Below the pieces are notes generated by a model that worked only from the letters and a program-made list of their open reading frames with translations, did not search any database and was not told where the DNA came from. A DNA stretch of 63,844 nt, filler included, from Squatina squatina (Eukaryota), in assembly GCA_031763465.1 (NCBI GenBank). It is 4 parts of 4 records of this genome, joined end to end, with 100 filler letters (N's around TTAATTAATTAA, not from the genome) between each part and the next. Parts side by side here need not be neighbours in the genome. Positions count along the whole stretch, not along the records: positions 1 to 15,999 come from JARFOE010000115.1; 3 more parts are not named here. One strand, 5' to 3'. Positions within the stretch are counted from its first letter, which is position 1; each line of letters opens with the position of its first letter. The translations under genes were made by a program, and so were the position numbers. Of the stretch, positions 8,150 to 8,494 are shown piece by piece.

Positions 8150-8494
8150 ATGAACACAACTGCATTAATTTCTCTTTTCAGTTCATGTATTAGTAAGATT
8201 TTAAAAGAATCTTTGGATAAAGACAAAATTGATGGATCACAGCTGAATGCAACTGATTCCACGAGCACTCGTCGGAAATCAGATGAAAATTCCTACTTTT
8301 TTGTCCTCTTCGTGATGTTCTTCTACTCATTACTGGCATTAAGTGTTTTTTGTGGGCATCTGCGGGCAAAGAAAAAGAAATCCCAGACAGACCCTTACGA
8401 GGAGTTTATGAATGGGAAAGAAAGCAAAAATGGATTTCCATTCCAAAGTGGATCTGCAATCAAGTTTGACTTTGAAGAAGAAAGTATTTTATAA
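8150..8494 (+). CDS. KCNE-family potassium channel auxiliary subunit, 114 aa, single coding exon
   Basis: Acceptor tctgcag| at 8098, ATG 8150 (aagATG); sequons NTT and NAT; one TM YFFVLFVMFFYSLLALSVFCGHL then RAKKKKSQTDPY, aligning without gaps to recalled KCNE3 DDNSYMYILFVMFLFAVTVGSLILGYTRSRKVDKRSDPY; AATAAA signals downstream. Confidence 0.9.
   Translation: MNTTALISLFSSCISKILKESLDKDKIDGSQLNATDSTSTRRKSDENSYFFVLFVMFFYSLLALSVFCGHLRAKKKKSQTDPYEEFMNGKESKNGFPFQSGSAIKFDFEEESIL

Follow-up and report, generated by a model that had tools for sequence, protein, structure and literature searches.

An intact open reading frame (ORF) of the cartilaginous fish Squatina squatina is, practically beyond doubt, an orthologue of KCNE6, the isoform described by Kasuya et al. 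(2024, Commun Biol 7:1662; PMC11659587). It was found in a stretch of 63,844 nucleotides, filler included, which was analysed as a whole and is called the window here. The best explanation, held with considerable confidence, is an intact shark KCNE6 gene whose product likely acts as a helper subunit of KCNQ1, slowing channel opening and shifting it to more positive voltages. KCNE6 is already known and characterised, and neither a new gene nor a new mechanism is described here. The range of the gene is extended to cartilaginous fishes (sharks and a chimaera), a lineage outside the discovery paper's sample as given in its main text.

The ORF runs from ATG to TAA through 114 codons with no N inside, as proposed from the sequence-only reading (Table 1). 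Nine N-free ORFs of at least 100 amino acids that begin with ATG are present in the whole window, and a chance ORF was ruled out here by full-length homologues, the best with an E value of 5e-50 in the homologue search. The product passes the KCNE family profile (Pfam PF02060, ISK_Channel; 26 bits versus a cut-off of 22.1, E 8e-6), and its best ESM Atlas matches are KCNE clusters (0.96). Its architecture is also that of KCNE subunits: a small membrane protein, single-pass by predicted topology, with sequons near the N terminus and a cluster of basic residues beside the membrane. The two glycosylation sequons, single transmembrane segment, basic cluster and DPY motif that had been read from the sequence were all located; the Kyte-Doolittle profile has one hydrophobic segment only (19-residue peak 2.5, starting at residue 50), the basic cluster occupies residues 72 to 77, and DPY lies at residues 81 to 83. 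An AlphaFold model from a nine-row alignment (mean pLDDT 61.6, pTM 0.27) has helices at residues 3 to 26, 39 to 79 and 82 to 91; a Foldseek search with this model gave no match at E ≤0.001, the sole row being KCNE3 (6v00_C, E 6.1), and the identification does not draw on these results.

The acceptor claimed upstream fared less well: an AG with a pyrimidine-rich run exists at 8097-8098, but the run is short (pyrimidine fraction 0.65), and among the 15 further AGs in 7941-8151 six score just as high, which leaves the site a plausible candidate. Just 5′ of the ATG, the in-frame stretch 8105-8149 resembles an N-terminal extension of the unnamed proteins P0004 and P0241. These approximately 45 bases are conserved in another shark-group species, and the window has no in-frame upstream ATG there.

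Table 1. Features of the KCNE6 locus and of the neighbouring PAX3 exons in the window
Feature	Position	Strand	Basis and remarks
PAX3 penultimate coding exon	442..688	+	99% to Scyliorhinus canicula Pax-3b
PAX3 terminal coding exon with stop (2690-2692)	2658..2692	+	Canonical splice sites; 10-residue peptide
Candidate splice acceptor, 51 bases 5′ of ATG	8088..8098	+	Sequence only
KCNE6 ORF, single coding exon	8150..8494	+	114 aa; homologues, Pfam, tree
N-glycosylation sequon N2	8153..8161	+	N in 114/120 relatives (best 120 of 217); glycosylation predicted
N-terminal helix, residues 3-26	8156..8227	+	Predicted; C13 in 117/120 and L18 in 114/120 relatives (best 120 of 217), family-typical
N-glycosylation sequon N33	8246..8254	+	N in 117/120 relatives (best 120 of 217); glycosylation predicted
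D45-E46, aligned to KCNE3 D54-D55	8282..8287	+	Acidic pair in 5/120 relatives (best 120 of 217)
Transmembrane helix, residues 48-70	8291..8359	+	Hydropathy, KCNE3 alignment, model
Gating triplet L62-A63-L64	8333..8341	+	KCNE3 alignment; state published for KCNE6
Juxtamembrane basic cluster and DPYEEF motif, residues 72-86	8363..8407	+	Sequence
C-terminal acidic tail motif, residues 105-114	8462..8491	+	Pattern in 93/120 relatives (best 120 of 217); common across the KCNE6 clade
Four AATAAA hexamers, candidate polyadenylation signals	8580..8691 (8580, 8647, 8653, 8686)	+	Sequence; use predicted

A single-sequence search gave eight matches among 17 candidates. Nearly full-length relatives are known from Carcharodon (XP_041065446.1, “KCNE3-like”; 83% identity), Chiloscyllium (chiPu_0007244; 78%), Scyliorhinus (scyTo_0001635; 78%) and the chimaera Callorhinchus (V9KT13, “KCNE3-like”; 52%); the exact Squatina squatina sequence was absent from the protein collection searched. 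A profile of these relatives produced 217 matches, of which the 120 listed include sturgeon, bichir relatives, teleosts, amphibians, reptiles, birds and one marsupial, under the names “KCNE3,” “KCNE3-like,” “KCNE4” or hypothetical, or without a name. Among the best 120 of the 217, the gating triplet is LAL in 55, LAM in 53 and MAL in 1. Pairwise BLASTP comparison was end to end with chicken P0263 (101 bits) and Xenopus tropicalis P0022 (98 bits), at 46 to 47% identity, the chicken value being 46% over 114 columns. Scores were lower with human KCNE3 (51 bits, 30% over 86 columns), shark KCNE1 (40 bits, 28% over 87 columns) and shark KCNE4 (37 bits, 28% over 47 columns).

In a tree of 27 rows, comprising the window protein and 26 proteins chosen manually so as to represent named species (25 of the 120 listed matches plus chicken P0263), chondrichthyans (99/97), tetrapods (98/98) and ray-finned fishes (91/83) each form one group, as expected for a single orthologous gene. 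Rows for the classical isoforms came from a profile search of 50%-identity representatives, which gave 91 matches, including KCNE1 to KCNE5; 20 were looked up, 16 of them had a name for the protein, and the others were assigned to groups by eye ahead of tree building. The second tree, kept small by leaving out other matches, has 46 rows: the window protein, 14 family members, nine KCNE3, seven KCNE1, six KCNE5, five KCNE4, one KCNE2 and three unassigned proteins. Sampling is weaker for KCNE3 and KCNE2 in this tree, since it has no shark KCNE3 row and a single, odd KCNE2 row. The window protein falls in a 15-row KCNE6 clade (100/99), apart from KCNE1 to KCNE5, with chicken, Xenopus, Tasmanian devil, sturgeon, bichir-relative and teleost proteins, and it forms one clade with four shark and chimaera database proteins (99/96). 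KCNE3 (100/99), KCNE4 (100/99), KCNE1 (96/94) and KCNE5 (94/81) are separate clades, and a shark KCNE1 (Heptranchias), a shark KCNE4 (Heterodontus) and a Callorhinchus KCNE fall in the classical-isoform clades. Moreover, Erpetoichthys carries both a KCNE6-family gene (P0007) and a distinct KCNE3 (P0319). Two other KCNE proteins of sturgeon and Erpetoichthys (P0316 and P0324), which sources variously call KCNE2, KCNE3 or KCNE5, have a branch of their own (96/95) beside KCNE3 and KCNE5; they could represent the KCNE5 of ray-finned fishes or a paralogue not yet recognised.

The phylogenetic check suggested with the sequence-only reading found no grouping inside KCNE3 or KCNE4 in the 46-row tree. 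Forcing the window protein into KCNE3 was rejected by the approximately unbiased (AU) test at a cost of 34.7 log-likelihood units (p-AU 0.000668); this test covered the KCNE3 grouping, and KCNE4 is opposed by its separate clade and its score of 37 bits. The observation that the protein fits none of KCNE1 to KCNE5 well was correct, and the poor fit is explained by membership of the published sixth isoform, as clade, synteny and triplet all match.

According to the available text of PMC11659587, KCNE6 adjoins pax3, resembles KCNE3 in sequence and has the triplet “LAL or MAL”; it is functional in species ranging from fish to marsupials, and in eutherians it is present as a pseudogene. This is the KCNE6 of non-eutherian vertebrates that had been mentioned in the sequence-only reading, and of the two options then left standing, KCNE6 orthologue or new paralogue, the first is borne out by clade, PAX3 synteny and LAL and the second is not. 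In Supplementary Fig. 5 of that paper, the kcne6 ORF is 324 bp long in chicken and 315 bp long in X. tropicalis; P0263 (107 aa) and P0022 (104 aa) match these by species and length and anchor the clade to the published gene. The anchor consists of species, length, synteny and a by-eye zebrafish comparison with the printed material rather than a letter-for-letter match. Zebrafish KCNE6 as printed in Supplementary Figs. 1 and 4 has the N-terminal helix pattern, helix core, DPYEEFM and acidic tail in common with the window protein, and the printed human remnant matches, by eye, a stretch of P0309, a eutherian-type remnant.

Synteny points the same way. The PAX3 exon at 442-688 was named by the homologue search, while Pfam and ESM Atlas gave it no name; the other 119 of its best 120 of 400 matches have 82 to 89% identity and carry the name PAX3, a domain name or no name. 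The terminal peptide is identical in 61 of 120 PAX3 matches (best 120 of 400), and no paper on it was found in the literature searched. The KCNE6 ATG lies 5,458 bases past the PAX3 stop on the same strand, with six N gaps (506 N) between. The gene had been placed immediately 3′ of PAX3; PAX3 is indeed the neighbour on the same strand, but at this distance and across six gaps, in a window with 52 N runs (4,415 N). The same adjacency was reported for all 10 species surveyed in the available text of PMC11659587. It is also indicated in birds by gene models of Colinus and Limosa (P0133 and P0204), which run from PAX3 into the C-terminal part of the KCNE6 family. These joined models are probably annotation artefacts of adjacency, as is the name “Paired box Pax-3” carried by a Labeo KCNE6 (P0084). 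A PAX3-KCNE6 fusion in the window was rejected, PAX3 having its own stop (2690-2692) and poly(A)-type hexamers (3577-4880), and tblastn with four family members found just one KCNE-type locus in the window. In humans, the 3′ flank of PAX3 presumably faces the EPHA4 desert, with KCNE4 on the other side.

Several further observations concern this neighbourhood and the rest of the window. The frame of the PAX3 exon extends 35 codons into the intron (689-795, plus strand), where it is identical to the C terminus of Scyliorhinus canicula Pax-3b isoform X1 (P0121); judged from the sequence, sharks could have here a PAX3 end that retains the intron and is under strong conservation, or else a conserved noncoding element. 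A 29-base tandem array of 10.9 copies (5941-6257), two high-copy repeat fragments beside KCNE6 (approximately 9040-9080, and 9590-9704) and a long minisatellite-like array with repeating frames (approximately 41900-42960) are also present. Exons of a RasGEF-domain gene lie at 54984-60218 on the minus strand, opposite to KCNE6 and PAX3 and outside positions 1-15,999, which derive from JARFOE010000115.1. PF00617 scores 42.8 bits at 54984-55220, and more exon-like frames occur near 56570-56790 and 60010-60190. These exons look like RASGEF1B, which is not known to adjoin PAX3 in other vertebrates; the placement may be an arrangement peculiar to sharks or a scaffolding join in this gappy assembly, or the gene may be an unnamed RASGEF1 paralogue.

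KCNE subunits are single helices that lie against the voltage sensor of KCNQ1. Vertebrates other than mammals have kept a further paralogue, KCNQ1L (Kv7.1L; bioRxiv 10.1101/2025.09.21.677649). Six KCNE3 residues (S57, I61, M65, A69, G73 and I76) face KCNQ1 S1, and constitutive opening of KCNQ1-KCNE3 falls to 0.35 with the substitution G73L and to 0.11 with I76F, according to the passages of PMC9671499 on this complex. Aligned to solved KCNE3, these residues correspond to S48, V52, M56, S60, L64 and F67 of the window protein, and none of the best 120 of 217 family members has glycine at the G73 position, the window protein included. The glycosylated N terminus would be extracellular, by analogy with orthologues, and the helix would pack on S1 through S48, V52, M56, S60, L64 and F67, where the bulky L64 and F67 (KCNE3 G73 and I76) would block the tight fit that keeps KCNQ1-KCNE3 open. 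KCNQ1 opening would then be slowed and shifted to more positive voltages, and the complex would give a slow, IKs-like current. Such gating agrees with what has been published for KCNE6: all six proteins assayed (zebrafish, coelacanth, frog, anole, chicken and koala) gave a slow KCNQ1 current with a positive shift, as described in the available text of PMC11659587. By analogy with these, the shark protein is probably a functional KCNQ1 modulator with a positive shift. Extrapolation from zebrafish suggests probable heart expression and, as a further extrapolation, modulation of Kv4. The search of sequencing runs gave no RNA run containing the stretch. Three runs carrying the same species label contain next to none of the stretch's words; their contigs leave 8009-8694 bare and accumulate solely over repeat-like sequence near 9040-9080 and 9590-9704, so that they are uninformative on expression.

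The alternative that survives best is a KCNE6 orthologue that would gate KCNQ1 in the manner of KCNE3, with a negative shift or partial opening at rest. Position 45 is tyrosine in 113 of the best 120 of 217 relatives, Callorhinchus included, and the D/E-E pair at 45-46 is found in the window protein, in P0001 to P0004 and in one frog protein (P0046), the five relatives counted in Table 1. Serine at the KCNE3 S57 position (S48) occurs in 9 of the same 120. D45-E46-x-S48 is closer to KCNE3 than to the Y-D-x-A of bony vertebrates, and of the claimed likeness of DENSY to KCNE3 and KCNE1, the KCNE3 part is upheld by the alignment and the KCNE1 part is not. An earlier report, cited in PMC9671499, has KCNE3 D54 and D55 acting on S4 to give constitutive activity; in the solved complex, as described in the same passages, both residues are far from S1 and S4, which lowers the odds for KCNE3-like behaviour. 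The lack of a glycine at the G73 position, with L64 and F67 matching the substitutions that cut constitutive opening in KCNE3, also stands against it, as do the positive shifts of all six non-eutherian KCNE6 proteins. KCNE3-like gating is therefore distinctly unlikely. It is similarly doubtful, if slightly less so, that shark KCNE6 would prove to gate KCNQ1 unlike all tested KCNE6, settle the role of D54/D55 in constitutive opening and reveal an early jawed-vertebrate split between KCNE1-like and KCNE3-like gating.

Less probable still is a KCNE6 gene that is silent or decaying in Squatina squatina, like that of placental mammals, where the available text of PMC11659587 reports a pseudogene. 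Three near-private helix substitutions could be read in this way: C68 occurs in none, and L61 and S65 in one each, of the best 120 of 217 relatives. All three lie outside the six S1-facing positions, although they could still matter. The CGH at residues 68 to 70, previously called unusual, is so only in its private C68, since GH is a lineage motif found in 5 of these 120 relatives (four shark-group proteins and one sturgeon protein). Decay is opposed by the short terminal branch of the window protein in the 27-row tree (0.048 versus a median of 0.12), by 78 to 82% identity to four shark-group relatives, the same range as among themselves (70 to 80%), and by retention of both sequons and the tail motif. 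It is also opposed by a full-length ORF: in the truncation series of PMC11659587, as far as its available text goes, both termini are needed and are lost in nonfunctional eutherian forms, and both are present here, aligned over 114 columns with the chicken and frog proteins.

The least credible reading is that of a new, seventh paralogue, or of a KCNE3 or KCNE4 that has diverged, for although human KCNE3 is the best match among solved structures (35 bits, followed by KCNE1 with 20 and KCNE2 with 19) and databases use the names KCNE3-like (Carcharodon and Callorhinchus) and KCNE3 or KCNE4 (some birds and snakes), the 100/99 clade, the AU test for KCNE3 and the pairwise scores are contrary, KCNE3 is already given as the nearest classical isoform of KCNE6 in the available text of PMC11659587, and chicken P0263, itself named KCNE3 in UniRef, scores just 36 bits against solved human KCNE3, so that such names are transferred labels. 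The protein lies outside the KCNE3 clade with LAL instead of TVG, and it neither groups with KCNE4, whose separate clade includes a shark member, nor has the long KCNE4 C-terminal tail.

With the window ORF taken as KCNE6, the presence of the gene in cartilaginous fishes implies that KCNE6 and its linkage to PAX3 were likely already present in the last common jawed-vertebrate ancestor. The words shark, cartilaginous, chondrichthyan and elasmobranch are absent from the main text of PMC11659587, and none of its ten species is a cartilaginous fish; shark KCNE6 is likewise absent from the passages covered of a lamprey KCNE0 preprint, a KCNE review and a Kv evolution preprint. No report of it was found in the searched literature, a set short on subscription papers. 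The shark proteins themselves are already public under other names, and many shark, bird and reptile entries labelled “KCNE3-like,” “KCNE3,” “KCNE4” or hypothetical are KCNE6 (P0001, P0005, P0011, P0021, P0263 and others). For channel biophysicists, the shark-specific acidic pair is a ready natural variant.

Compared with known systems, the window protein shares with KCNE1 (minK) the slow, positive-shift gating expected here but belongs to a separate clade. With KCNE4 (MiRP3) it shares the helix start Y-x-x-x-L-x-V-M-x-F-Y, a resemblance noted correctly at the outset, and again the clades are separate. KCNE3 (MiRP2; PDB 6v00, 6v01 and 2ndj) has the same single helix, basic cluster, DPY and D-x-N-S-Y at the helix start; it differs in its clade, in lacking the KCNE6 acidic tail, in opening KCNQ1 constitutively, and in having TVG where the alignment places L62-A63-L64, the LAL assigned from the sequence. 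From the shark and chimaera database proteins, none of which is named KCNE6, the window protein differs by its private L61, S65 and C68. With KCNE6 as described in the available parts of PMC11659587, it shares the clade, the position 3′ of PAX3, the LAL triplet and KCNE3 as nearest classical isoform, and its 114 residues compare with 104 to 122 in published functional forms. It differs in having D45-E46-N47-S48 in place of the Y-D-N-A of bony vertebrates and CGH in place of the FGY of tetrapods, and in coming from a cartilaginous fish, a group not represented among the published KCNE6 species.
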